A stretch of DNA of 64,000 bases, from positions 933,589 through 997,588 of the forward strand of contig CAVVAV010000003.1 in NCBI GenBank assembly GCA_963746405.1, in the 5' to 3' direction. Shown here one piece after another: positions 45,013 through 61,649 of this stretch (its first letter is position 1; each line of letters opens with the position of its first letter). A program made the translations under genes and the position numbers. Below the pieces are notes generated by a model. It was given only the letters and a program-made list of their open reading frames with translations. It had not been told where the DNA came from and did no database searches. Origin of the DNA: an uncultured Chloroflexia bacterium. GTDB lineage: Bacteria; Chloroflexota; Limnocylindria; Limnocylindrales; CSP1-4.

Positions 45013-45264
45013 ATGCTGACCGTGCCTGAGGCCGCGCGACGCGCAGGGCGCAATCCGGAGACCATCCGACGATGGATCCGTGAGGGCAAACTGCGCGCCC
45101 GCAAGGTCGGGACGCAGCATGTCCTCGAGGAGGCCGACCTCGCTGAAGTACTCGGAGCGTTCGAGGATACGGTCGAGCTGCCGCCCGAATGGCAGCGAAC
45201 CTTCTGGGGCGGTGCCATGCCGGACGTCGTCGCGGCCGTCCGACGGTCTCGCGCGGGACACTGA
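45013..45264 (+). CDS. Antitoxin, excisionase/MerR-like HTH (VapB-like)
   Basis: MLTVPEAARRAGRNPETIRRWIREGKL HTH; 83 aa; adjacent to PIN toxin gene. Confidence 0.7.
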   Translation: MLTVPEAARRAGRNPETIRRWIREGKLRARKVGTQHVLEEADLAEVLGAFEDTVELPPEWQRTFWGGAMPDVVAAVRRSRAGH

Positions 45265-45265
45265 C

Positions 45266-45670
45266 GTGCTGCTGGTCGTGGATGCCAGCGTGATCGTCCA
45301 GGTCAGCCTCGCGGGCGGCTCGTTGGGGCCGCTCGAGGATCACGACCTCATCGCCCCGACGCTGTTGGCATCGGAGGTCACCTCGGTCCTGTGCGAGATG
45401 ACGCACCGCGGTGAGGTTCCGCATGACCACGCGCGCGTGGCCGTTGGGAGGCTGGAGAGCCTGCCGATCCGCTACGAGCGTCCGGACGGCCTTGCGGAGC
45501 GCGCATGGGACCTCGCGCGATCCCTCGGATGGGCCAAGACGTACGACGCCGAGTACCTCGCCCTGGCGCTCATCAATGAGGCGCCGCTCATCACGATCGA
45601 CGAACGCATGCGACGCGGGGCGGGCCACGTCGTGTCGATGCCGAGTCCGACCGAGCTCGCGGCGATCTGA
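45266..45670 (+). CDS. vapC: PIN-domain toxin VapC
   Basis: LLVVDASVIV (first Asp), later acidic residues; GTG 2 nt after antitoxin stop. Confidence 0.7.
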   Translation: MLLVVDASVIVQVSLAGGSLGPLEDHDLIAPTLLASEVTSVLCEMTHRGEVPHDHARVAVGRLESLPIRYERPDGLAERAWDLARSLGWAKTYDAEYLALALINEAPLITIDERMRRGAGHVVSMPSPTELAAI

Positions 45671-46539: not shown

Positions 46540-47289
46540 CTAACCACTTCCGATAAGGTGAGTTATGTCTGACTGGGGACGGAGATGGTCCGCGGCGGAT
46601 TCATGAACTCGAGACGACCCTATTCTGTGCTTTGGGGTCTCGCCCAGCCGATCGATTAGGGCGTTGAGGCCGCCGGTAAGCCCGAGAGACGCAATCCCTA
46701 AGATGGCCAACAGGACCGCGACGAGCGTCCATCGCCGCGCGGTAAATAGGTCTTGCGCCACACGGGATCCGCTCAGGTACGCGGATTGGGTAGCGCGGCG
46801 TAGTGCCTCAGCTGCGGCGGCTTGGAGCGACGCCTCGGTTGGCTCCTCGTTACGAAGCGACCGCGCGAGGATTCCGAGGCGATCGAGACTTATGCCGCCC
46901 GATTCGGTCAATCCGCTCGCGAGCGACGCTATTGCAATCGCAATCGCCAGACTAACGTCTGCAAGCAGCAAGATGACGAGTGGCGTCCAATCCCAAAGGC
47001 TCGCATATGGCGCAGGGATCACGACTGCCGTAGCACCAAGCGCGAACGGAACCAACGCAAGGAGAAGCGTGAGATGGGTTGAGACCTTGGACTGGAGGCT
47101 ATCAACAGCCCCATCGGCTAGCTCCAGGCTCTTAATCGCGAGCTCTAGGGCTACCTCGCTTCGCCGCTCATCCCCTGCCGCGTCGCGAATCCACTCTGGT
47201 GGCGGTGTTGCCGGAAGTCGCTCAAGCCCTTCAGCGGTTCGTGCATCGCCTGCGATGAATGCGACAAATCGGCGGAGCGTCCCGGCCAC
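46540..47289 (-). CDS. Membrane protein (3 predicted TM), hypothetical, low-GC island
   Basis: GTG start abuts ATP-grasp stop (TAAGTG); hydrophobic segments. Confidence 0.55.
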   Translation of the reverse strand: MAGTLRRFVAFIAGDARTAEGLERLPATPPPEWIRDAAGDERRSEVALELAIKSLELADGAVDSLQSKVSTHLTLLLALVPFALGATAVVIPAPYASLWDWTPLVILLLADVSLAIAIAIASLASGLTESGGISLDRLGILARSLRNEEPTEASLQAAAAEALRRATQSAYLSGSRVAQDLFTARRWTLVAVLLAILGIASLGLTGGLNALIDRLGETPKHRIGSSRVHESAADHLRPQSDITHLIGSG

Positions 47290-48219
47290 TTAACGAGTCC
47301 TCGTTAGCGCTCTAGCGAGTGCTTCCGTGATCCGTCCGTTATATGTATCGTCGAGAAAGAGCCACTGTCCGTTTGGATTCGCTTCGAGAAATACGCTCTC
47401 GCCGCTGCGGCTCACAATCCAGTCTTGGGATGAATACCCGAGCCCGAGGGCGCTCGCCACACGCAGCGCATCGTCGGCAACTCTTGGATGGGCACCATCG
47501 GCCACGACAAAGCGTTGATGATTCTCGGTCTTGAGCCGCCAATCGAGATCCTCGGTGGTTAACGCGGCTACGAAAGCCGCGCGTTCGACTGTTACCACGC
47601 GTAGGTGTGTGGATGCCTCCATGAGCTCTTGCAGGATTACTGGTACTCCGCCGAGGTCACGAAGCTGCTCAGGCCCGACCTCCGTTGTGAACGCGACCCT
47701 GGGAGGATCGTTCGAGACCAGCCCGTAGCGAATTGGCTTAACCACAACGCGACCATGATCGCGAACAAATCGCCGTGCGCGCCGTGCGTCTGACGTAACA
47801 ATTGTCTTGGGAATTCGAAGCCCGAGTGAGTTGGCAACCGCGAGCTGGTAGCCCTTTACCTCTGACCGCTGCAAGACGTGCGGAGGGGTGAGCCAGTCCA
47901 CAGTCGTGTGGGCCGCGAACATCAGCGTTTCGCGCCACTCTTGAATGACAAACTCGGAATACAGACTGTCAACGTCGTCGACTACCACGCGACCGGGCCG
48001 CCTCCAGAACCCGCGCGTTGTAGCGTCTATGAGATGTCGGTTCCCAACGATCCAGTGGGGTGGATCAGGCGTCCAATAGAAAGACGCGGAAGCCAACGTA
48101 TCCCTGGACAACCGAATCGTTCGAGCGCCTAGGCGAAAGAGGGCCTGCTCAAGCGCGTCGCCATGTTCATCCGAGGGGGCCGATACTAGGAGGACTTCAG
48201 CCCCAGCTGGGCTCGTCAT
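47290..48219 (-). CDS. ATP-grasp enzyme, RiPP-maturase-like (graspetide/microviridin-type)
   Basis: 309 aa; LDWR and FLEANPNGQWLFLD motifs recalled from MdnC/ATP-grasp ribosomal peptide maturase families; low GC. Confidence 0.65.
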   Translation of the reverse strand: MTSPAGAEVLLVSAPSDEHGDALEQALFRLGARTIRLSRDTLASASFYWTPDPPHWIVGNRHLIDATTRGFWRRPGRVVVDDVDSLYSEFVIQEWRETLMFAAHTTVDWLTPPHVLQRSEVKGYQLAVANSLGLRIPKTIVTSDARRARRFVRDHGRVVVKPIRYGLVSNDPPRVAFTTEVGPEQLRDLGGVPVILQELMEASTHLRVVTVERAAFVAALTTEDLDWRLKTENHQRFVVADGAHPRVADDALRVASALGLGYSSQDWIVSRSGESVFLEANPNGQWLFLDDTYNGRITEALARALTRTR

Positions 48220-48436
48220 CAGTCGTCTCAGGAGGCTGGCTCCTGGTCAATCTCGTACCGCCAGGGACCTCGCCAGGAACTGATCTAGCAACCCTAGCCA
48301 GCAATGGGAGTCCTCCTCCCACGACTAGGTCAATCGCTGTCAGCCCGGGGTCATCCGATGTCTCGGCTGTCTTGGTGAAGACGGTTTGGCCTTCCGCGTG
48401 GCCTTGGACCTCAACTGAGATCTTTTCGAGGATCAT
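48197..48436 (-). CDS. Candidate precursor peptide/small ORF upstream of ATP-grasp
   Basis: Only ORF in the 345-nt gap; G-rich SD upstream; MILEKISVEVQGHAEGQTVFTKTAETSDDPGL rich in T/S/K and D/E; 3' part rare-codon, may be non-coding. Confidence 0.25.
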   Translation of the reverse strand: MILEKISVEVQGHAEGQTVFTKTAETSDDPGLTAIDLVVGGGLPLLARVARSVPGEVPGGTRLTRSQPPETTDDEPSWG

Positions 48437-48565
48437 GTGTCGCACTCCCGTGCTCCCTCCCCCGTCGCCGGCAGCGTCGGGCCGTCAATCCAGAGTCTAT
48501 CGACCGAACAGTCGGTTTGTACACACTCGCCACTCTGCTCGTGACTGATCCAATACGAATTGCAG

Positions 48566-50888
48566 CTAGGCGAGGTAGGAGCGGACTCTTCCGGGTGCGT
48601 ATAGAAAGCGATCAATCGACGCCGATACGTTGTAGTAGTACGGCGGATGCTCGATGTAGTTCGCCAGAAGCGCCTCGAGGAACGCGGGATCAGCGCGCTG
48701 GGTGATGACAGCCACGGCCGCGACCCGGATTTGTGCACTCTCGCTGTGGAGGAGCGCCTCGAACTCTGAGATAGGCACGTTGCCGTCGGCGCCTAGCGCC
48801 TGAACCGCCGCGTGGACAAGCTCTGCGTCGGCGCTCCCCAGGAGCGAACGCGCAAACTCCGTGCCCCCAAGCCGAAGACTCGCTGCGGTCAATGCTTCAC
48901 GCTCTTCGTCCATCGTGAGCCTCGCGGACTCTGCGAGCAACGGCGCATCACGACGCTCTCCAACCAATGCTAGGGCGGTTGCCACGTCAGCCTTCGCGGA
49001 CCGATTGATGTGCTCCAGGGCCTGTCGGATGAGGTCAATGTCGTCGGCGCCTCGCACGTCGGGGGAAAGCCGAGCGAGCAATTGCGCGGCGGCATTAGTT
49101 CGGCGCCCGTAGAGATAGCCGAACACGCTCTTCTCACCAGCCAGCGCCGGTAGCTCCGCAGCCGCCGAAGAGGCCCACTCATCCTCTGTCTGGGACAGGA
49201 GTTGGCGCGCTTCGTCCGCCATCGACTCGCCGTCCAGCCACGTCAAGGCCTCCCATGCCTCGTGATCAAGCGCCGACCCAGCGGACCGACGCAACTCATC
49301 AAGGGGGATGCTCATTGCCATTAGGCGCGGCCTGAGCGCGGTCGCCCATGGGCTTCGTTCATCGACGAGCCGATCCAAAAGCTGTTGTGCCAAGACTCTC
49401 CGAGCGTCGACGTAGTCCAGGACAAGGTTGGTCAGGTCGGAACTCGCGTCGTCCACCGCGTTGGCAAGCTGATCAACACTACAATTCCCCCGGTTCAGCA
49501 ACTCAACCAGCGCTGCCCGTCGCAACGGAGTCTTTATGCGCCGCTTGATCAGGTTCGCGAGATCGACGTCGTCCAGCAGGGCGACGTCCCGCTGGAGGAG
49601 TTCGCGAGCCCATGGCCTAATGTCGTATCTGTCGCCGATCGCAACGGCCACAAGTGGACTGTGGTCGCCTTGAAAGGCTGCTCTAAGCGCTTGGACATCC
49701 GCGGTGCCGACGTCGTCGGGTGCCCCCTCGACGATTGCACGCAATAGCCCCTCGTCATGCCGCTCGGCCAGACCTGCCAAGTACTTGGTTGCGTTCATCG
49801 AGCGCAATGGATCGGCAAGCAGCTTCACCCATCGCTCGGCCTTTTCGGCCAGTTCTGATTGCGTCGTTTCGTCGTTCGCCCAAAGGTCGCGCGGTCGCAC
49901 GGACATGATGTTGAGCAGACGCAGCGCGCCCCGCGCCGCGGTCAAGTCGTCGCCTTGGGCCATCGCCGCGAGCCGCCTCTCCAAATCGGCTTCTCCGACA
50001 ATTGCCCAACCCGGCACGACCAATTCTGCGACGTCCTCGGACGCGAAATCTGTCGCGAGTGTCTTGAGCCACTGCTCGGCTTCGCCCACGATCAACGAGA
50101 TCTCTGCATGACGACGGTACAGACGGTTCACCACGTGGGTGGGCAAGGCGTCCCCGTTGCCAATTGCGATCGAGAATAGAAGTAGGCGGTCAGGATCAAG
50201 CGAGGTGGAGGGTCGGTCACCGGCGACGACGCGTCGGAATCCATCGAGAACGTCTGTGATCTGTTCCTGTGCTGATCTGCGCTCGCTGTCGGGGTCCTCC
50301 TCTTGCGAACTGGTCGGACGCCCTGCGGCGGAATCGCCGGAGTCGGCAGGGGCGGCCGTAGGTCCGGGAGCGGTCCGGCCTTCCGTCACGGCGCGATCTG
50401 TGACCACGCCCACGAGGTACGCGACGAGCTGTCTATCTAGATCAGGAAGCGAATCGAACTCGCGATACAACGCAAGCTGCTCGTCGCGGATTCGTCCCCG
50501 AAACTCAAGCACACGCTGCAGCCTGCGGACCGGCGTCAGCCTCCTCGCCTTCGAGAAGGCGTTTGAAGAAGAGTCCAATAGCCGGGGTGTGCGCCGTGGC
50601 TCGCCTTCCGACGACTCGTTCGAACTCTTCGGCGAAACCGGAATCGTTAGCCCCGGTATTGGACCCCCACCGTCGGTGAAGTAGCCCGACAAAGATGTCG
50701 CAAGAATCCACCAACGGGTTGATCAGGTCCTGTGGACGACCGAGGTCCGGGGCAACTCGCTCCCAACCGGTTACGCGAATTCGAACGCCCAGACTGACGC
50801 CGCACATTTCCACGACGCGGTCCGCCACAACGCGCACCAAAGCGCGTTCCTCGGGAAGATCACCTGGTGAAGCGATGAATAGTTCCAA
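48566..50888 (-). pseudogene. DUF4062 N-domain + HEAT/ARM-like repeat protein, frameshift near 50533
   Basis: N-term MELFIASPGDLPEER (DUF4062-like, ORF 50505..50888) continues in other frame into 708-aa ORF with C-terminal HEAT-like repeats. Confidence 0.55.
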
Positions 50889-50934
50889 CTCAATTGCCTC
50901 GGTGACCAGCGTTCATCCTCCTACACCCACGGCC

Positions 50935-51225
50935 CTAATCGAGGTTGGCTAGTCCGTTTCCCGATGGCGTTGTCTTATCTTCGGGCCTCGTCGTGGTCGC
51001 TAGCTCTGGCCACAATCGTCTTTGGAATCCGCTTTCGGCTGGCAGCGCGAGATGGCCATCTTGTCGTCCCTCCTTCGCGCTCGTCCTGAAGTCGCACTTG
51101 GGAAGCCCGGGCCCAGCCGGCCCCACCGTACCTGGGGTTCCAGGCGGGTCGGAGCAGGGCCAGCAGAAACCGGCGACGAGTCGAGCGGACACGCCGGTCG
51201 CCGCCTGGGCCGCGAAACCGATCAC
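50935..51225 (-). pseudogene. Relic fragment of DUF2075-like gene
   Basis: AAQAATGVSARLVAGFCWPCSDP...KCDFRTSAKEG vs AQAATGATARLVAGFCWPWSDP...KSDFWASAKEG in 52553..54478; ~70-nt DNA identity; high-GC patch. Confidence 0.6.
51147..51214. repeat. ~70-bp dispersed repeat copy A (matches 53042..53110)
   Basis: CAGGGCCAGCAGAA(A/G)CCGGCGACGAGTCGAGCGG...GCCGCCTGGGC shared. Confidence 0.7.
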
Positions 51226-52494
51226 TTCCGCTTCACGGCGTCAGCGACGATATCAAGCAGCCGTTTCACCAGATCATTTCCGTCGTCAGCTGTACTTCCA
51301 GCTACTGGCGCTGTGAGAAACGACCGTTTAGCGAGGTCATACTTGAGCTCGTTACGCTTCTCGTCGTCGAGCAACGCGACGAAGGGATCAAGCGCGGTGA
51401 GGTCGAGTTCCGACTTTCGAGCGCGCCACTCGGTCTGCCGGTGGCGGCCTGACTCTGCGAGTGCATAGAGACCGATGCCGAGAAGAGGCAGCGCGACAAG
51501 CAGCCTGCCTGTTAGCCATTGCAGTGTGAACTCTGTGGCGCCGGTAGTGACGATTGTGAAGACTCCCCAGGCGGCAATAGCGACGAAGAGACCGATGCCG
51601 ACCCATCGCCACCGGTCGGCGGCCTTGTGCTCGGATTCGGCTTGGCCCAGATAACCCCCGCTCGCTGCCTCCGCACCCAGGGCACTTAAGACCTTCCGCG
51701 CGTCGTCGCGGGACGCCGTCATGTCTTCGAGCAGGGTTTCAGCGCCTGCGCGGAGCTCCTCCGCGGAAGTGCTTGCAAGTTCACGCTGCTCGGTCATGAA
51801 CGTGGCGTGTTCCTCGGCCGCGCGCGCAGTCTGCTGTCGCGAACTGCTCAGCCCGCTGCGACTCCGCTGTGGAGAACTGTGACTGGAACTGGGCAATCGC
51901 CGCGTCAAGCCGGCTCTTCTGGTTCGAGATCTCAGCCGTCAACTCCGTCTGCCTTGCCGCCAGGGGCGCGAGAGCGGACTGGGCCTCTGCCGTGGCCTGA
52001 TCTACGAGCTGTTCGATCTCGGAGCGCACTCGTGCAAGGGCTTGCTCAAGTTCCGCCGCTCGGTCTCGGTTTCGTCCTGCTTCACCGCGGAGGTCCTCCA
52101 GAACCTCCTCCACGTCCCGCCGAAGCGCCGCGATCGTCTGCCGTGCTTCGCGAGCCGGGCGCTGTAGCCAAGTCGTGAGGGCGTCGAGGACTTGCTCGAG
52201 GTAAGCGTTCGCACTGGTGAGCTGGGCGGCGTCGCCGGACGAGACGTACGCGCTTGTCGCGTTCTGAACCTGGCTGAGTGCAGGCGAAGGTGCGTCGATG
52301 ATTCGCGCCGACAGAAGTTGGGGATCCGCGCTGAGAATGATCGCGCGGGCGACTTCGATACCTGCCCTGAGTCGCTGCTGGTCGTCCCGTTCTTTGTCGG
52401 ATTTGGGGTCCGGCAGTTTGCTCAGAAGTTCGACGAGGGCACGCGTTAGTGCGACCGTCTGACTGCCAGCATGCCGGTCACGCCACTCACTCAT
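51222..52494 (-). pseudogene. Coiled-coil protein with two C-terminal TM helices, frameshift at (GC)n ~51817-51826
   Basis: ORFs 51781..52494 and 51222..51908 join into Q/A/E-rich coiled coil then WRWVGIGLFVAIAAWGVFTIV and LLVALPLLGIGLYALA TM. Confidence 0.5.
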
Positions 52495-52552: not shown

Positions 52553-54478
52553 CTACTCCTCGTACGTCGCGGCAGCTTGCGCTGCCATATGAGTGTCCGT
52601 GGTTGCGAGTTCCGTTCGGCTCAGGAAGAAGTCGCGCGTCGGGGCGTCCATGAAGTAGACGTAGCAGCCGCGGAGACCGCGGGTCAGCAGGACGCGGTAG
52701 GTGCTCTTGACGTAGCGGGTGAACTCGGCCTCGGTGACGCCGCGGCGGACGACGCGGTCGTGCGACTGGTCGCGCTGGCCGACCCATCCCCCGTCCATCG
52801 GCCGGTAGACGAGGTCGGGGCCGACGATCACGCCGACGTAGTCGAACTCGAAGCCCTGCGCCGTGTAGACGCAGCCCACCTGGTCGATCCCCTCCTTCGC
52901 GCTCGCCCAGAAGTCCGACTTCGGGATGCCGGGGCCGAGCCGGCCGACGCCGTCCCTGGCGTTCCAGGGCATCGACCACTCCCCTACCCTGACGTCCGGC
53001 ACGAGCTGGCCGTCGTCGTCGGGGTCGGACCAGGGCCAGCAGAAGCCGGCGACGAGTCGAGCGGTCGCGCCGGTTGCCGCCTGGGCGCGGATCTTCTGCT
53101 CGAGCTGGCCGATCGAGCCGACGATCTGGAAGTCGAACTCGTCGTCCATCGACCAGAGCACCTGCGGCGTCCGGTTGAGCTCGAGCGTGTTGTCGACCCA
53201 CTGGATGAACGAGTCGGAGCCGTTCGAGCGGAACTGCGCCTCGAGCTTGAAGTCGCGCACCTCGATCGAGCGCTTGGCGGCCTCCTCGCGGATCAGGTCG
53301 GTGCTGCCGACCTCGCCCGGGCGCACGACCTGCAGGTCATCGATGAAGAAGACGGTGACCCGGCTCGAGTCCAGGATGTCGTCGATCTGGGACTTGCCCG
53401 TGCGCGCCTTCGCGGGCGTGAAGCGGCTCGTGCTGATCGTCCGGATGCGGTGGGCCTCGTCGAGGATGGCGACGTCGAGCTTGTCGGTGACGGTCGCGGT
53501 GTCGCGGAAGTACTTGAACAGCGCGCCGGCTCGACCGCCGACGATCTTGCGCAGGTTCTCCGTGAACGCCTTGGAGCCGGTCAGGTGGAGCGTGCTGAGG
53601 CCGCGCTCGGCGAGCTCCGCGACGAGGTTGAGGGCGATGACCGACTTGCCGGTGCCCGGGCCGCCTTCGATGAGGAAGATGACGTTCTGCTCGTTTGTGC
53701 CCGCGTGGCCGACGGCGTCGAGGATGGCGTTGTAGGCCACGAGTTGTTCGTCGAGGAGCACGAAGGTCGGCTCGATGCGGATGACGCGGGCGACGTGGTC
53801 GAGCAGGCGCTTGTGTGGCTTGAACGCAGTCGCGGCGACGCGCTCCAGGATCTCGCCCTCGTCCGGGCCGGCGATGTGCTGATCGAGGAACGTCGCGAGC
53901 GCATCGGACTGGTCGCCGGCAAACGCGGGGTTGGAACCAAGGAGCGCCGTGAAATCCGCGTGGTAGAGCGGAGACATCGGGTCGTGCTGCGCGTAGTGAA
54001 GGTACGCGCAGGCATCGAGGGCGATCGCGCGGTCGTCCGAAAACGCGGGATGGGTATCCAGCAGGTACCGCTGGTACTGCGCGACCTGGCGCGACGGGTG
54101 GAGCGTGTCGCGCGGCTTGCCGCCGTAGTCGACGGTGACGCAGTCGGTGATGTTCGACCGGCCGACTTCGGTCCACTGCTTGAGCTCGACGATCACGGCC
54201 GCGTCGCGGCGCGTGTCGGGGTTCGAGCCGGTGATGAGGACGTCAAGCCGCTTCGAGCTGAGCGGCATCTTGAGTTCGACGAGGATGCCCTGATCGGTCA
54301 GGTCGGCCGTCTGGAGCACGTGGGCCATCGCGCTGAGGCTGTTGCGCCAGCTCGTGACTTCGCTCGGAGATGGTCGGTAGCGGAACTCGTCGAACCAGCG
54401 GTCGCTCAGCATGTTGGCGAGCCGAGCCTGGGTTGCGTCCGCGATGAACTGCCGGGTCGAGCCCTGGTAGAGGTGCAA
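52553..54478 (-). CDS. DUF2075-like protein: N-terminal PD-(D/E)xK-like (NERD-type) segment + SF1-like P-loop ATPase
   Basis: ILVELK / VIVELKQW segments; Walker A IEGGPGTGKSV; Walker B LDVAILDEAHRI; TTG start with G-rich SD. Confidence 0.65.
   Translation of the reverse strand: MHLYQGSTRQFIADATQARLANMLSDRWFDEFRYRPSPSEVTSWRNSLSAMAHVLQTADLTDQGILVELKMPLSSKRLDVLITGSNPDTRRDAAVIVELKQWTEVGRSNITDCVTVDYGGKPRDTLHPSRQVAQYQRYLLDTHPAFSDDRAIALDACAYLHYAQHDPMSPLYHADFTALLGSNPAFAGDQSDALATFLDQHIAGPDEGEILERVAATAFKPHKRLLDHVARVIRIEPTFVLLDEQLVAYNAILDAVGHAGTNEQNVIFLIEGGPGTGKSVIALNLVAELAERGLSTLHLTGSKAFTENLRKIVGGRAGALFKYFRDTATVTDKLDVAILDEAHRIRTISTSRFTPAKARTGKSQIDDILDSSRVTVFFIDDLQVVRPGEVGSTDLIREEAAKRSIEVRDFKLEAQFRSNGSDSFIQWVDNTLELNRTPQVLWSMDDEFDFQIVGSIGQLEQKIRAQAATGATARLVAGFCWPWSDPDDDGQLVPDVRVGEWSMPWNARDGVGRLGPGIPKSDFWASAKEGIDQVGCVYTAQGFEFDYVGVIVGPDLVYRPMDGGWVGQRDQSHDRVVRRGVTEAEFTRYVKSTYRVLLTRGLRGCYVYFMDAPTRDFFLSRTELATTDTHMAAQAAATYEE
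53042..53110. repeat. ~70-bp dispersed repeat copy B
   Basis: See 51147..51214. Confidence 0.7.
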
Positions 54479-54526
54479 CCCCTCCCCTTCCCCGATGGGC
54501 CGCCGTGACGGTCGACGACGTGGTGA

Positions 54527-55582
54527 CTATACGGCCTGATCCGACGGCGGATCCGCCCCCGCGCTGCCAGACATCGGCGTGGTCTTCCCCTCCCCGTCTC
54601 GATTCGTCATCGAGCCTTTATCGCGGCCCGGGCGCGCTGCCCATGGTCCCGTCGCCGGGGCGAGGGTCGTCTCGATGCGGCGCCCCAAGCGATCGACCTC
54701 CGCGACGTCGATCGCGGGCGGAAGCGCTCGGATGCGGGCCAGCAGGTCCGTGTGCGACGTCAGCGTGACACCGGCGATCGACTTGGGGCCGAACAGCCCG
54801 AACTGACCGCCCACGACGCAGATAACGCACTCCACGTGCTCGACCGACAGTGCGGCCCTCAGCGACGCGGCCTGCCGCTCGACCTGCTCGACGAATGTCG
54901 TCGCCCGATGACCCTTCAGGAACAGCTCTTTGCCCCGGACGCGGACGTCACCCGCGTAATGCTTCGTCTCGATGACGATGACGCCGGGCGGGCCAACGAC
55001 GATGTGGTCGATGTTGTCGCGGCCACCCGGCCGGCGCCGGTCGTGGAAGACGTGGAAGCCATCCGCCTCCAGCATGGCGAGTGTCCGCCCGATCTGCTCC
55101 TCGCCAGCCGCACCGATGCGCCAGGCCAGCACATCCGGTGGTTTGGCATACAGCTCGGCGAGGGTCCACGCGAGGCCGGCGAAGATCAGGGCAACGCCGA
55201 GGAGCGGCAGAGTAGACCCTTGTGGCACGAGGGCGATCCCCGCGAGGATCATGACGCCCCCGACGGCGAGGATGTCGGGCCGGCGCCTGCGTATCCGAGC
55301 CTCATGCGCCGCCAGCCGACGCTCATACGTCGCGCGTGTCGAACCGCCCGCCCGTGGCGACTCGATCGCCGTGGTCATGGCCGTGATCGGCGGGGTCGGC
55401 GCCGTTCCGTCCACCGCGGTCTCGAGCGCGCGTGTGCCCCGGCAGGTCGGGAAGTGTGAGCACCCCCAGAAGGCAGCGTCGTCGGCGCGCCGGGTGCGCA
55501 GGATCATGGACGATCGGCAGCGCGGACATATCGGTGGTTCCGACTCAGTCCCGCTCCGTGCAGTCGCCGGCTGGGCGGCCAT
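54527..55582 (-). CDS. NERD-domain protein with N-terminal C4 zinc ribbon and two TM helices
   Basis: Start [11 protein letters not shown] after GGGGGAGGGGAG; CPRC...CSHFPTC zinc ribbon (topo-type); NERD motif [20 protein letters not shown]. Confidence 0.7.
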
Positions 55583-55742
55583 CGCTCCCCTCCCCCGGTT
55601 CGACCCGCGAGGGTCGCTATCGACCCGCAGTGTACGGGAGGGCATCGCGCTCGCTCCCCTCGGCTGCGCGGCGGGATTGCGGATGGCATTCGACGCCCAT
55701 AGGCTTGAGACCAGCCATCCCGCCAGAAAGTCGCCTTCCCGT

Positions 55743-56774
55743 ATGAGCCTCGATGACTTCCCGCGCGTGTCTTTGATGTTCGGGCCGTCGCCTGCGCATC
55801 CGCTGCCACGCCTGAGCGCAGCGCTCGGAGGACGGGTAGAGATCTGGGCCAAGCGCGAGGACTGCAACTCGGGCATCGCCTTCGGCGGCAACAAGGTCCG
55901 CAAGCTCGAGTACCTGGTCGCCGATGCGCTGGCCAACGGCTGCGACACGCTGGTCTCCATCGGCGGGGTCCAGTCGAACCACACCCGCGCTGTCACGGGT
56001 GCCGCCAGACACTTGGGTCTCGGCGCCGTCACCGTCCAGGAGCACTGGGTCGACTGGGACGACCCCGGCTACGAAACCGTCGGCAACATCCAGCTGACGC
56101 GGATCATGGGTGGTGACATCCGGATGAACCCAGCTGGTTTCGATATCGGTGTGCGAGACAGCTGGCGAGAGGCGCTCGAGTCGGTCGAGAAGGCTGGCGG
56201 CAGGCCGTACCCGATCCCCGCGGGAGCCTCCGACCATCCGCTCGGGGGCCTGGGCTTCGCGAACTGGGTGCGTGAGGTCGCTGCGCAGGAGGCGCAGCTC
56301 GGGCTGCTGTTCGATCACGTCATCGTCTGCACCGTCACCGGCTCGACACACGCCGGGATGATCGCCGGGACGGCCCTGGAGGACCGAGGCGGCGGAAGTG
56401 GTCGCCGAGTGATCGGCATCGATGCGTCGAAGACGATCGAGCGGACGCGCGACCAGGTGACTCGGATCGCGCGCGCCACCGCCGAGCTGATCGGCGTGGA
56501 CCGTGAGCTGCGCGACGACGAGGTCACGTTGATGGATGGGTATGCAGGCCCGGTCTATGGCGTGCCCGACGACCAGACGATCGAGGCGATCCAGCTCGCT
56601 GCGCGGACCGAGGGGATGATCACCGACCCTGTCTACGAGGGGAAGTCGATGGCAGGTCTCATCGGGATGATCCGCTCCGGCGATATCCCGCCGGGTTCGC
56701 GGGTCCTCTACGCGCACCTCGGCGGACAGCCCGCCTTGTCGGCCTACGCGCACACTCCGGGACTGGGCGGCTAG
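55743..56774 (+). CDS. acdS: 1-aminocyclopropane-1-carboxylate deaminase
   Basis: Near full-length colinearity with recalled AcdS: FGPSP...[23 protein letters not shown]-Lys, [16 protein letters not shown]. Confidence 0.85.
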
Positions 56775-57976: not shown

Positions 57977-58185
57977 CGGGTCGAGTTCCTTCTACGGGGT
58001 CTGGATCCAAGCATCAAGCGTCCCCCGCGGGCTTTGCCCCACCGATCGGGTTCGCCGCGTGACAGCCGGCCGACAGACCCGCTGGGCTAGCTCGTGTCAG
58101 CGCACTCGGGATGGTGGCCGGATCATGCCCCAGCCGCCCGTCGCCTCCCGACGGCTCGCTGGTCGAGGTCGGCATACTCTCGATC

Positions 58186-59427
58186 ATGTCGTTCCTGCGA
58201 AAGCTCTTCGGGTCGGGGGATAAGCCGAGGCGGCCCTCCGCTCGACGCGCCTCGTCCCCTCCCCCGTCACGACCTCCGTCGCCGCCGGCTGGCACGCCGC
58301 CGCCTCGGATCCCGACGCTGGCTGAATCGTCGCCGCGGGCGCTGCACGCCTACTTCGAATACGTCGGCGGCGGGTCCTCGAAGTTCTACGCGGTCAGCCT
58401 GGAGGAGGAGGACGGGGAGACCTGGCGTGTCCGCTTCAACTTCGGGCGGATCGGGTCCCGCCGGGAATGGGCTACGCGTGTCGAGGGTGTGACGTGGGCA
58501 AAGGCAGCCACCACGTACGTGGCCTTGATCGACGAGAAGCAGGGTAAGGGCTACGAGATCCAGCGCTGGCCGGCGGCCCTGCGGCTGCCGGACGGCTCGA
58601 CGATCGAGGAGGATCCATCGGCGGACAGCGTCCAGACCCGCTTCCGAGCCGCGACCCGCGGCTCGCTGCCGCCTGAGACCGGCGGCACGATCGCCGGCGT
58701 CGCGCTGCCGGATGGTCGGCTCTATGCGCCCGAGCCAGAGGGTGGGTCACGCGGCGACGACCCCGTGATCTGGGCGTCCTCGGCGCCGGTCAAGGACGTG
58801 GCACGGATCTGGTCCCAGCTGGCCCTTGCGTTCCCGCAGACCGGAATCTGGCCGTTCGTCATCGACGCCTCGTTCGGCTTCGACGGATTCGACGAACGTC
58901 TCATGGATCTCCCGAGGGGCCGCCACACCGAGGTCATGACGATCCTCCGACGGGGCTGGAACGAATTGGTGGAGTCAGACGAGGACGATGAGGCCGAGGA
59001 GCTGTCCCCGTTCGGGAATGCGTTCCCCGGCCTCGCCCGACCGACGCCGTCGGATCAGCCGGCATCCATCGACGCCATCGTGGCGACGTTGAGCGGTCAT
59101 CTGGGTCTGGTCGCCGTCAACCGTCCGGCTGACATCCTCGATGCGGTCGGCTGGATGGGCGCCGCGAACTACGACGGCGACCCGCTCGACATGACCACGG
59201 TGCTCCGCTCATGGGAGCTTCGGTTCGACGCCTACGTCGTCGAGCTGGGCACGGACACGCTGACCCTCGCCGTGGGCCGCCCGGCGCGCGACCTCGAGTC
59301 GGCCCTGGCGATCGCCGCGGAGCACTACGCCTTCTGCCCCGACAACGTCCAGCAGGGCGAAGGGTCGATCCAGGCGTACGCTGAGAGCCTCGTCGACGCG
59401 GAGGTGTGGCCGTTCTGGTGGGACTGA
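58186..59427 (+). CDS. WGR-domain protein with C-terminal DUF4253-like domain
   Basis: WGR signature YFEYVGGGSSKFYAVSL...WRVRFNFGRIGS; P-rich linker; C-term ...EVWPFWWD. Confidence 0.6.
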   Translation: MSFLRKLFGSGDKPRRPSARRASSPPPSRPPSPPAGTPPPRIPTLAESSPRALHAYFEYVGGGSSKFYAVSLEEEDGETWRVRFNFGRIGSRREWATRVEGVTWAKAATTYVALIDEKQGKGYEIQRWPAALRLPDGSTIEEDPSADSVQTRFRAATRGSLPPETGGTIAGVALPDGRLYAPEPEGGSRGDDPVIWASSAPVKDVARIWSQLALAFPQTGIWPFVIDASFGFDGFDERLMDLPRGRHTEVMTILRRGWNELVESDEDDEAEELSPFGNAFPGLARPTPSDQPASIDAIVATLSGHLGLVAVNRPADILDAVGWMGAANYDGDPLDMTTVLRSWELRFDAYVVELGTDTLTLAVGRPARDLESALAIAAEHYAFCPDNVQQGEGSIQAYAESLVDAEVWPFWWD

Positions 59428-60565: not shown

Positions 60566-61589
60566 TCAGCGCCAGCCGAGGCCCGGAGCCACGTACCTGA
60601 GGATGCTCTCGATCGCGTGGGCGTTGTACTCGACGCCGAGCTGGTTCGGGACGGTCAGCAGCAGCGTGTCGGCGGCCTGGATGGCGGTGTCGCCGGCGAG
60701 CTCCTTGACGAGGACGTCGGGCTCCGCGGCGTAGGAGCGCCCGAAGATCGCCTTCGTCTGCGCGTCGATGTAGCCGACCTTGTCGGTCTCCTCGTTGCCG
60801 CGACCGAAATACGCCCGGTCCCGATCGTCGACCAGCGCGAAGATGCTGCGACTCACCGACACCCGCGGCTCGCGCTGGTGCCCCGCGGCCGTCCATGCCT
60901 CGCGGAACAGGCGGATCTGCTCGGCCTGGAGCTCGTGGAACGGCACACCGGCGTCTTCGGTCAGCAGGGTCGACGACATCAGGTTCATCCCCTGCTGGCC
61001 CGTCCATTGGGCGGTCGCCCGGGATCCCGCGCCCCACCAGATGCGCTCTCGCAGGCCCGGCGAATGCGGCTCGAGGCGGAGCAGTCCGGGCGGGTTCGGG
61101 AACATCGGCGTGGGGTTCGGCTGGGCAAACCCGACCCCGGACAGGGCCTGCAGGAACACCTCCGTGTGGTCGCGCGCCATGTCCGCGTCGGTCTTGCCTT
61201 CCGGCGGGCGCGTAGCCGAAGTAGCGGAAGCCGTCGATGACCTGCTCGGGCGAGCCGCGGCTGATCCCGAGCTGCAGCCGACCACCGGCGATCAGATCAG
61301 CCGCACCGGCGTCCTCGACCATGTACAGCGGGTTCTCGTAGCGCATGTCGATCACGGCCGTGCCGATCTCGATCCGCTTCGTCCGCGCCCCGATCGCCGC
61401 CAGGAGCGGGAACGGCGACGCGAGCTGCTGCGCGAAGTGGTGGACGCGGAAGTAGGCGCCGTCGGCCCCCAGATCCTCGACGGCTTCCGCGAGCTCGATC
61501 GATTGGATGAGCGCGTCGGATGCCGAGCGCACCTGGGAGTACGGCGAATCGGACCAGTGTCCGAACGAGAGGAATCCGATCTTCTTCAC
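60566..61589 (-). pseudogene. LLM-class flavin/F420-dependent oxidoreductase, +1 frameshift near 61200 (GG run)
   Basis: N-part KKIGFLSFGHW...RIEIGTAVI...FRYFGYAPA in ORF 60516..61595 frame; C-part EGKTDADMARDHTEVFLQAL... in ORF 60566..61285 frame. Confidence 0.7.
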
Positions 61590-61649
61590 GGGCAAAGTCT
61601 ACGGTCGAAGACGCTCCAGCCACTGTCTGACGGTCAACGTGCCCGGGCC

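Follow-up and report, generated by a model that had tools for sequence, protein, structure and literature searches.

In a 64-kb window of contig CAVVAV010000003.1 from an uncultured Chloroflexia bacterium (by the window we mean the whole stretch of 64,000 nucleotides; all coordinates are positions in it), two open reading frames (ORFs) on the minus strand, where every feature of this gene given below lies as well, share part of their DNA. The ORF in what we call frame A covers 50505..50888 and encodes 127 amino acids (aa) from a TTG start, beginning MELFIASPGDLPEER; the ORF in frame B covers 48566..50692 and encodes 708 aa. The two are one gene of 773 codons which is split by a single inserted base at position 50522. 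The 5' piece, codons 1-122, is read in frame A (50523..50888) and codes for strands A-D and helices A-C of a TIR-like DUF4062 domain, as seen from the ORF list, the Pfam match and an alignment with 47 relatives. The 3' piece, codons 123-773 and the stop, is read in frame B (48566..50521), as given by the reconstruction and the alignment. The extra base, a G on the minus strand, turns the CAG-CTG of the closest intact relative into CAGGCTG, and the sequence, the reconstruction and the protein and blastn alignments all place here a +1 frame change after codon 122. Five out-of-frame codons (AAACA) later, frame A ends at a premature TGA stop (50505..50507).

At the level of DNA, frame A reads GAG GAG GCT GAC GCC GGT CCG CAG (EEADAGPQ), then AAACA and the stop, and frame B, one base on, reads CTG CAG CGT GTG CTT GAG TTT (LQRVLEF). 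Joining Q122 (last base 50523) to L123 (first base 50521) with omission of base 50522 gives a protein of 773 residues. A protein search with this joined sequence found 58 relatives, mostly single polypeptides of 755-859 aa at 98-99% query coverage; 47 of them cover 98-99% of the joined protein as single chains. Closest to it are P0002, with 773 aa and 45% identity, and P0003, with 775 aa and 42%, and the named genera include Actinomadura, Streptomyces, Jiangella, Aeromicrobium and Paramicrobacterium. The sole match at 100% is a 634-aa ORF called on the source contig, that is, a truncated annotation of the same gene. In an alignment of 48 sequences the join DAGPQ|LQRVLEF is free of gaps against DPGVQLRKVLDF, DAGPELSKVLEF and similar segments, with the invariant residues D118 and G120 falling in frame A and the invariant L123 and F129 in frame B. 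The DNA of the P0002 gene (locus L052) aligns by blastn with window positions 50892-50455 at 68% identity and with exactly one gap, of 1 nt, at the join (GGGCCGCA-GCTG versus GGTCCGCAGGCTG). Since the protein join is gapless and the DNA alignment holds this single 1-nt gap, the lesion is a one-base insertion rather than a boundary between two genes or a conserved recoding site.

A preliminary description of this DNA had placed a frameshift near position 50533. The shift exists, but its position is 50522. The reading after the frame change, which that description took to be about 690 aa, is shorter, as the homologous part comes to 651 aa and the 708-aa ORF contains 57 out-of-frame codons upstream of the join. 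The description had also considered the case of two unrelated ORFs, and this case fails because 47 relatives span both frames as single polypeptides. Indeed, an unrelated pair with a DUF4062 resemblance by chance is refuted by the Pfam match, the relatives, the alignments and the models, we found nothing in its favour, and we regard its probability as negligible. The case for programmed +1 ribosomal frameshifting, or for two proteins split on purpose, can draw only on the 188 nt (50505-50692) over which neither frame has a stop. Split copies were seen neither among the 47 aligned relatives nor among the 150 best representatives of the family or its 17 full-length loci; the break cuts through the TIR-like fold, separating strand D from helix D; and no slippery or stimulatory element is conserved, as the relatives simply lack the extra base. 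We therefore consider recoding or a split system to be very improbable.

At the 5' end of the gene an ATG at 50916-50914 stands directly 3' of a GGAGG, one base out of frame with the gene (window 50910-50916). Removal of base 50913 would give a protein beginning MTLVTEAIELELFIASPGD, an N-terminus which resembles those of P0002 and P0003 (MTTVASELQLFIASPSD) in length and form. This upstream ATG could mark a second one-base insertion or could be there by chance. The TTG at 50888 gives a start that resembles the one found in some other relatives.

The head of the joined protein is a DUF4062 domain, as the preliminary description had suggested. Residues 4-90 (50619..50879) match Pfam DUF4062 (PF13271) over profile positions 3-80 of 82, with E-values of 4.7e-7 and 1e-6 and scores of 30.4 and 29.2 bits, above the gathering threshold of 24.7 bits. 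The N-terminal 110 residues also match positions 6-117 (of 906) of the PADLOC model PDC-S60 with E=5.6e-16. A search of the PDB by sequence with the 172-residue head alone returned nothing significant. We modelled the protein with AlphaFold2 from the 48-sequence alignment, and obtained a mean predicted local distance difference test (pLDDT) of 90.7 for the full-length model and 91.9 for the domain alone. The predicted head is a five-stranded parallel beta/alpha domain of the TIR-like fold, with strands at residues 2-6, 38-41, 65-70, 103-109 and 140-144. In the models it is completed by helix D (121-136), strand E (140-144) and the long helix E (147-170), with which the domain ends. MilB (11.8) and the NDTs (11.6-10.4), enzymes of the nucleoside deoxyribosyltransferase type, are among the structural matches. 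The frameshift site, at residue 122, is in the loop between strand D and helix D, so that the TIR-like fold itself is cut and not a linker; the segment that completes it (residues 123-170, 50378..50521) is severed from the rest. As the shift comes after strand D, helix D, strand E and helix E are missing from the 127-aa product, which is not joined to the rest of the protein, the putative sensor. We infer from this that the gene as written cannot work and that this copy is inactive.

The functions of related domains have been reported in two preprints of 2026. DUF4062 is a TIR-like NAD+ hydrolase (NADase) which makes ADP-ribose and nicotinamide by means of a conserved glutamate (Osinski et al., 10.64898/2026.05.01.722283). 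In the Klebsiella Swarozyc protein (KpSwz), abortive-infection defence requires the glutamate E97 and a C-terminal auxiliary domain, a small helix-turn-helix (HTH)/winged-helix module that binds the phage portal, which leads to activation of the enzyme; resting KpSwz is an autoinhibited dimer of dimers with helical stalks beneath the heads, and human TEP1 is an active NADase as well (10.64898/2026.05.01.722283). The Evangelion systems are single-gene DUF4062 systems on resistance plasmids, which share F11, a Q/W/E motif and the catalytic pair E87-Y88, carry short diversified auxiliary regions, and for which NAD+ depletion and abortive infection were reported (Ibarra-Chavez et al., 10.64898/2026.06.25.731849). 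Bacterial DUF4062 proteins are, in this literature, single-gene abortive-infection systems in which the C-terminal auxiliary domain binds a phage component and frees the autoinhibited head. An auxiliary domain of the HEAT type is mentioned neither in the main text of either preprint nor in the supplement of Osinski et al.

The head described here shows the same set of residues. In the 48 sequences F4, Q53, E87 and E88 do not vary and W74 hardly does, and E88 is followed by F89. The triplet E87-E88-F89 is invariant in the 48 sequences and in a set of 25, and sits at the start of helix C (residues 84-99 in the models). Because F4, Q53, W74 and E87/E88-F89 are conserved in a matching motif order, the head appears to have the same catalytic apparatus as the published NADases: an N-terminal aromatic residue, a Q/W/E motif and a catalytic glutamate, where the correspondence is one of motif order and helix position rather than of an alignment to KpSwz or Eva01. 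From its invariance and its place on helix C, Glu88 (codon at 50625..50627) is likely to be the catalytic residue, matching E97 of KpSwz and E87-Y88 of Eva01.

Behind the head follows a disordered linker of residues 172-197 (50297..50374), with a pLDDT of 35-48 and with 6 Asp/Glu against 2 Lys/Arg in residues 171-200, which bears out the acidic linker of the preliminary description. The remaining ~575 residues (199-773, 48569..50293) form in the model an all-helical solenoid of the HEAT/ARM type with about 30 helices and a pLDDT that is mostly above 90. In Foldseek, run with the whole model, the tail matches the PP2A A subunit, SF3B1, transportin, CAND1, importins and beta-catenin, with probabilities near 1, E-values of 5.6e-4 and weaker, and low TM-scores of 0.18-0.26. 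The HEAT-like repeats that had been proposed for the C-terminus are weak by sequence in this copy, where HEAT_2 (PF13646) matches only 48656..48847 with E=0.007 and 17.1 bits, below the threshold of 27.7. They are better supported by the fold and by the family, in which 30 of 60 relatives match HEAT_2 at E<=0.001 (best 1.4e-21) and 14 of the 60 match HEAT. A PDB search with a profile that included relatives bearing TPRs returned only TPR proteins and was uninformative. Near the C-terminus, the motif YYYNV-x4-D-x2-LY (Y750, Y752, N753 and D759; 48599..48640) consists of invariant or nearly invariant alignment columns. The joined protein has no Walker A motif, which agrees with the earlier remark that there is no P-loop, and it has no Pfam match to an NTPase.

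To see how widely this body occurs, we built a solenoid profile from the C-terminal 575 residues of 10 sequences and searched it against 1.84 billion representatives of clusters at 50% identity. At E<=1e-30 this gave 599 proteins, and the number rises to 1762 at E<=1e-10. The 150 best matches are nearly all proteins of 770-830 residues in which the solenoid starts at about residue 195-230. A Pfam scan of 60 representatives found DUF4062 as the head in 58, SIR2_2 in one and SEFIR/TIR_2 in one; in P0189 (952 aa), for example, SIR2 (SIR2_2) is at residues 95-236 and the solenoid at 301-929. Thus, the sensor-like body is almost fixed to DUF4062, and the heads which replace it are classic NAD-consuming immune effectors. 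These replacements are the strongest evidence for a reading in which an effector head is combined with a sensor body, a layout that the preliminary description had suggested and that is supported here.

This is a large family of stand-alone genes with a scattered taxonomic distribution. Among species-representative genomes, full-length relatives are found within the Actinomycetota in Arthrobacter, Acrocarpospora, Nocardioides, Planctomonas, Microbacterium and Rubrobacter, and beyond that phylum in the Acidobacteriota, Cyanobacteria (Nodosilinea), Planctomycetota (Brocadia) and Bacteroidota (Fibrella). The gene is regarded as stand-alone because an all-against-all BLASTP of the flanking ORFs found no neighbour gene that is conserved across 17 loci and the window. 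An operon partner was considered and rejected: the flanking ORFs share only common dehydrogenase families (SDR and zinc-ADH), and these at varying positions.

Given its head, the protein belongs to the DUF4062 family, and its entirely different auxiliary domain places it in neither the Swarozyc nor the Eva01 lineage. With Swarozyc it shares the N-terminal TIR-like DUF4062 domain, the conserved glutamate on helix C, the long helix E (the "stalk") and the arrangement as a single gene with a C-terminal auxiliary domain, which is required for activity in KpSwz; the expected output would likewise be NAD+ hydrolysis and abortive infection. However, the auxiliary domain of KpSwz is a small HTH/winged-helix module that rings the portal, whereas here an all-helical solenoid of ~575 residues follows an acidic linker, in a copy that is frameshifted; KpSwz was compared by its published description. 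With Evangelion the protein shares the core features (here F4, Q53, W74 and E88-F89) and the combination of a modular core with a diversified auxiliary region. In Eva01, compared by description as well, this region is short and the genes lie on resistance plasmids of Firmicutes and Proteobacteria. The members of the present family, on the other hand, have ~770-830 aa, of which ~600 residues are auxiliary region in our protein, are chromosomal and occur mainly in Actinomycetota and Acidobacteriota, with no similarity detected outside the core; the gene in our window is located in an island of low GC content at third codon positions (GC3). PDC-S60, itself a candidate system, shares the head and not the body, as the other ~650 residues of our protein are unmatched by this model (no match of the 708-aa ORF at E<=0.01). 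The STAND/NLR-like NTPases with a DUF4062 head (TEP1 and NWD1 type) differ too, since the region after the head is all-helical here and contains no P-loop NTPase.

Proteins in which an NAD+-consuming head is held in check by, and triggered through, repeats in the same chain are known: DSR2 (defence-associated sirtuin 2) combines a SIR2 head with HEAT repeats, and SARM1 combines ARM repeats with TIR. What our protein would have in common with them is this logic of a repeat-gated NADase head, and a relative of its solenoid, P0189, bears SIR2_2 in place of DUF4062. Neither DSR2 nor SARM1 is among the top structural matches of the model.

We think it likely that the locus holds one gene for a sensor-effector of 773 residues, composed of a DUF4062 TIR-like NAD+ hydrolase, a long helix, an acidic linker and a HEAT/ARM-type solenoid. 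By analogy with the published systems, the intact protein would probably be an anti-phage protein with a TIR-like, NAD-destroying head and a helical-repeat sensor. If it works as related systems do, the DUF4062 head would be autoinhibited at rest. The solenoid, as the trigger-binding and oligomerising part, may bind a phage or stress-derived ligand and bring the heads together via the helix-E stalk; the active site around Glu88 would then be freed, NAD+ would be hydrolysed, and the loss of NAD+ would, again as in related systems, abort the infection.

The surroundings of the gene were investigated as well. It lies in an island of ~6 kb (46540-52494) whose genes have a GC3 of 0.62-0.70, compared to 0.88-0.93 in the flanking genes. 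The island contains a gene resembling ATP-grasp maturases of ribosomally synthesised and post-translationally modified peptides, a membrane protein gene, the DUF4062-solenoid gene, a fragment of a DUF2075 gene and a coiled-coil/membrane gene. It is flanked (52553-56032 and 45080-45670) by a DUF2075/Schlafen-type helicase, a 501-aa protein with NERD and a topoisomerase-type zinc ribbon, and a PIN-domain protein. The helicase (DUF2075/SLFN-g3) matches PF09848 at 1.4e-87 and also the PADLOC models PDC-S41, Nhi and AbiO. No plasmid genes were seen near the gene, a scan of the island for promoters and terminators gave nothing beyond the shuffled expectation, and the 64-kb window contains no tRNA. 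Among the relatives, the P0002 gene adjoins a CAP12-type TIR gene, and the P0003 gene adjoins genes for an AAA_15/21 ATPase and a HEPN protein.

Some other genes of the window deserve mention. The ATP-grasp protein of the island (309 aa; 46540-48445, minus strand) matches TIGR04187 with E=4.6e-44 and MvdC and MvdD with 1e-30 to 1e-28, all below the family cut-offs, and resembles maturases of graspetides, i.e. ribosomal peptides of the microviridin type. The coding region of a 249-aa membrane protein directly adjoins it. No precursor peptide could be identified upstream of the ATP-grasp gene, where an 82-aa ORF (48197-48445) has no family match. Further away, a 438-aa protein at 58111-59427 contains a WGR domain and a DUF4253 (E=1.7e-36).

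Several observations weigh against an anti-phage NADase. The DUF4062-solenoid proteins are so far known from sequences and models alone, and the auxiliary domains of the published systems are small and unrelated to the solenoid (an HTH/winged fold in KpSwz). In Foldseek the isolated head has only generic flavodoxin-like matches. Furthermore, the 125 flanking ORFs of 14 more distant loci are mostly housekeeping genes, the only exceptions of note being 4 integrases, 2 ThsA-type (ThsA-Macro) genes and one pSAM2-type RepSA, and metabolic neighbours are also found at the Aeromicrobium locus and at one metagenomic locus; the nearest clade thus shows a clear association with defence, and the family as a whole a modest one. 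Finally, the gene is interrupted in this window. Alternatively, then, the intact protein may act on nucleosides or nucleotides, as an N-glycosidase or transferase of the NDT/MilB type, or may be a TIR-like scaffold without catalytic activity; the solenoid would in either case be a platform for protein interactions in a housekeeping role. Against this stand the family motifs, which match those that KpSwz and Eva01 need as NADases and in defence; the patchy distribution, over five or more phyla, of a gene that has no conserved neighbour and lies, here, in a low-GC island; the TIR, HEPN and AAA_15/21 genes next to the closest relatives; and the occurrence of the same solenoid behind SIR2 and SEFIR/TIR, classic NAD-consuming immune effectors. 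We consider this alternative to be unlikely.

One may go further and see in the solenoid the mark of a separate and very large lineage of immune proteins with an NADase and its sensor in a single chain (five phyla and at least 599 clusters at 50% identity), in which one sensor is portable between DUF4062, SIR2 and SEFIR/TIR heads, responds to a trigger other than the portal or replication proteins of Swarozyc and Evangelion, and gates a DUF4062 head in the manner of DSR2 or SARM1. We would give this extended proposal the same weight as its negation.

Is the interruption itself real? The extra base may be an inactivating mutation, or it may be an error of sequencing or assembly, in which case the organism carries an intact and functional gene. 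The state of the rest of the gene speaks for an error: the 47 relatives have 52 alignment columns with a conservation of 90% or more, this copy retains every one of them, before the join and after it, and no stop codon interrupts the joined reading. In addition, two further genes in the same 64 kb are broken in the same way, by one extra base beside an identical base, and the size of the source contig (1.57 Mb) is compatible with a long-read assembly. The first of these genes is the coiled-coil/membrane gene of the island (51781-52494 and 51222-51908, minus strand), which has one extra base near 51819; the joined coiled-coil and transmembrane protein aligns over 100% of its length with the intact 429-aa protein P0075, at 65% identity and with no gap at the join. 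(In another metagenome, at locus L049, P0075 adjoins an Mrr restriction gene.) The second is a native gene of high GC3 for a luciferase-like monooxygenase (60566-61598, minus strand), split by one extra base near 61203 (GYAPA | EGKTDADMA). Once its frames are joined, the match to Pfam Bac_luciferase covers profile positions 7-235 instead of 7-118 and scores 95 instead of 70 bits.

On the other hand, the three shifts are unevenly spread: the 6-kb low-GC3 island has two of them, and a strict GC3-phase scan of the other ~58 kb turned up just the third. If errors fell uniformly, clustering of this kind would have a probability of about 0.025, which is a post-hoc figure from a scan that is not exhaustive. 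Among the native genes the strict scan finds only the shift in the monooxygenase, while two looser versions were too noisy or insensitive. The insertion site is not a long homopolymer either (G to GG). Moreover, the island holds a degraded partial copy of DUF2075, which sequencing errors cannot produce. This segment (51068-51210) is a degraded copy of 52890-53086 in the neighbouring DUF2075/Schlafen-type helicase gene, with 65 nt at 92% and 47 nt at 81% identity and a 54-nt deletion between them, and corresponds to residues ~465-530 of the helicase. It is the remnant of a second copy of the helicase gene or of a rearrangement at the border of the island, and it argues that the locus is really decaying. 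Weighing both sides, we see the two explanations, a real inactivating mutation and an assembly error that hides an intact gene, as about equally probable.

For this genome the finding matters less, as the copy is interrupted. For annotators, the three one-base insertions in the window are a sign either of an assembly prone to indels or of a decaying island. For the family the meaning is broader. Only since 2026 has DUF4062 been known as a TIR-like NADase and an effector against phages, and the proteins tested in the two founding studies came from Proteobacteria and Firmicutes and had short auxiliary domains. The combination of DUF4062 with a solenoid of ~575 residues appears to be among the larger DUF4062 sub-families and is dominant in soil phyla. 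Together with the rare forms in which its sensor is joined to SIR2 or TIR, it offers a natural system for the study of how different NAD-consuming heads come to be gated by a repeat sensor, and of what such a sensor detects.

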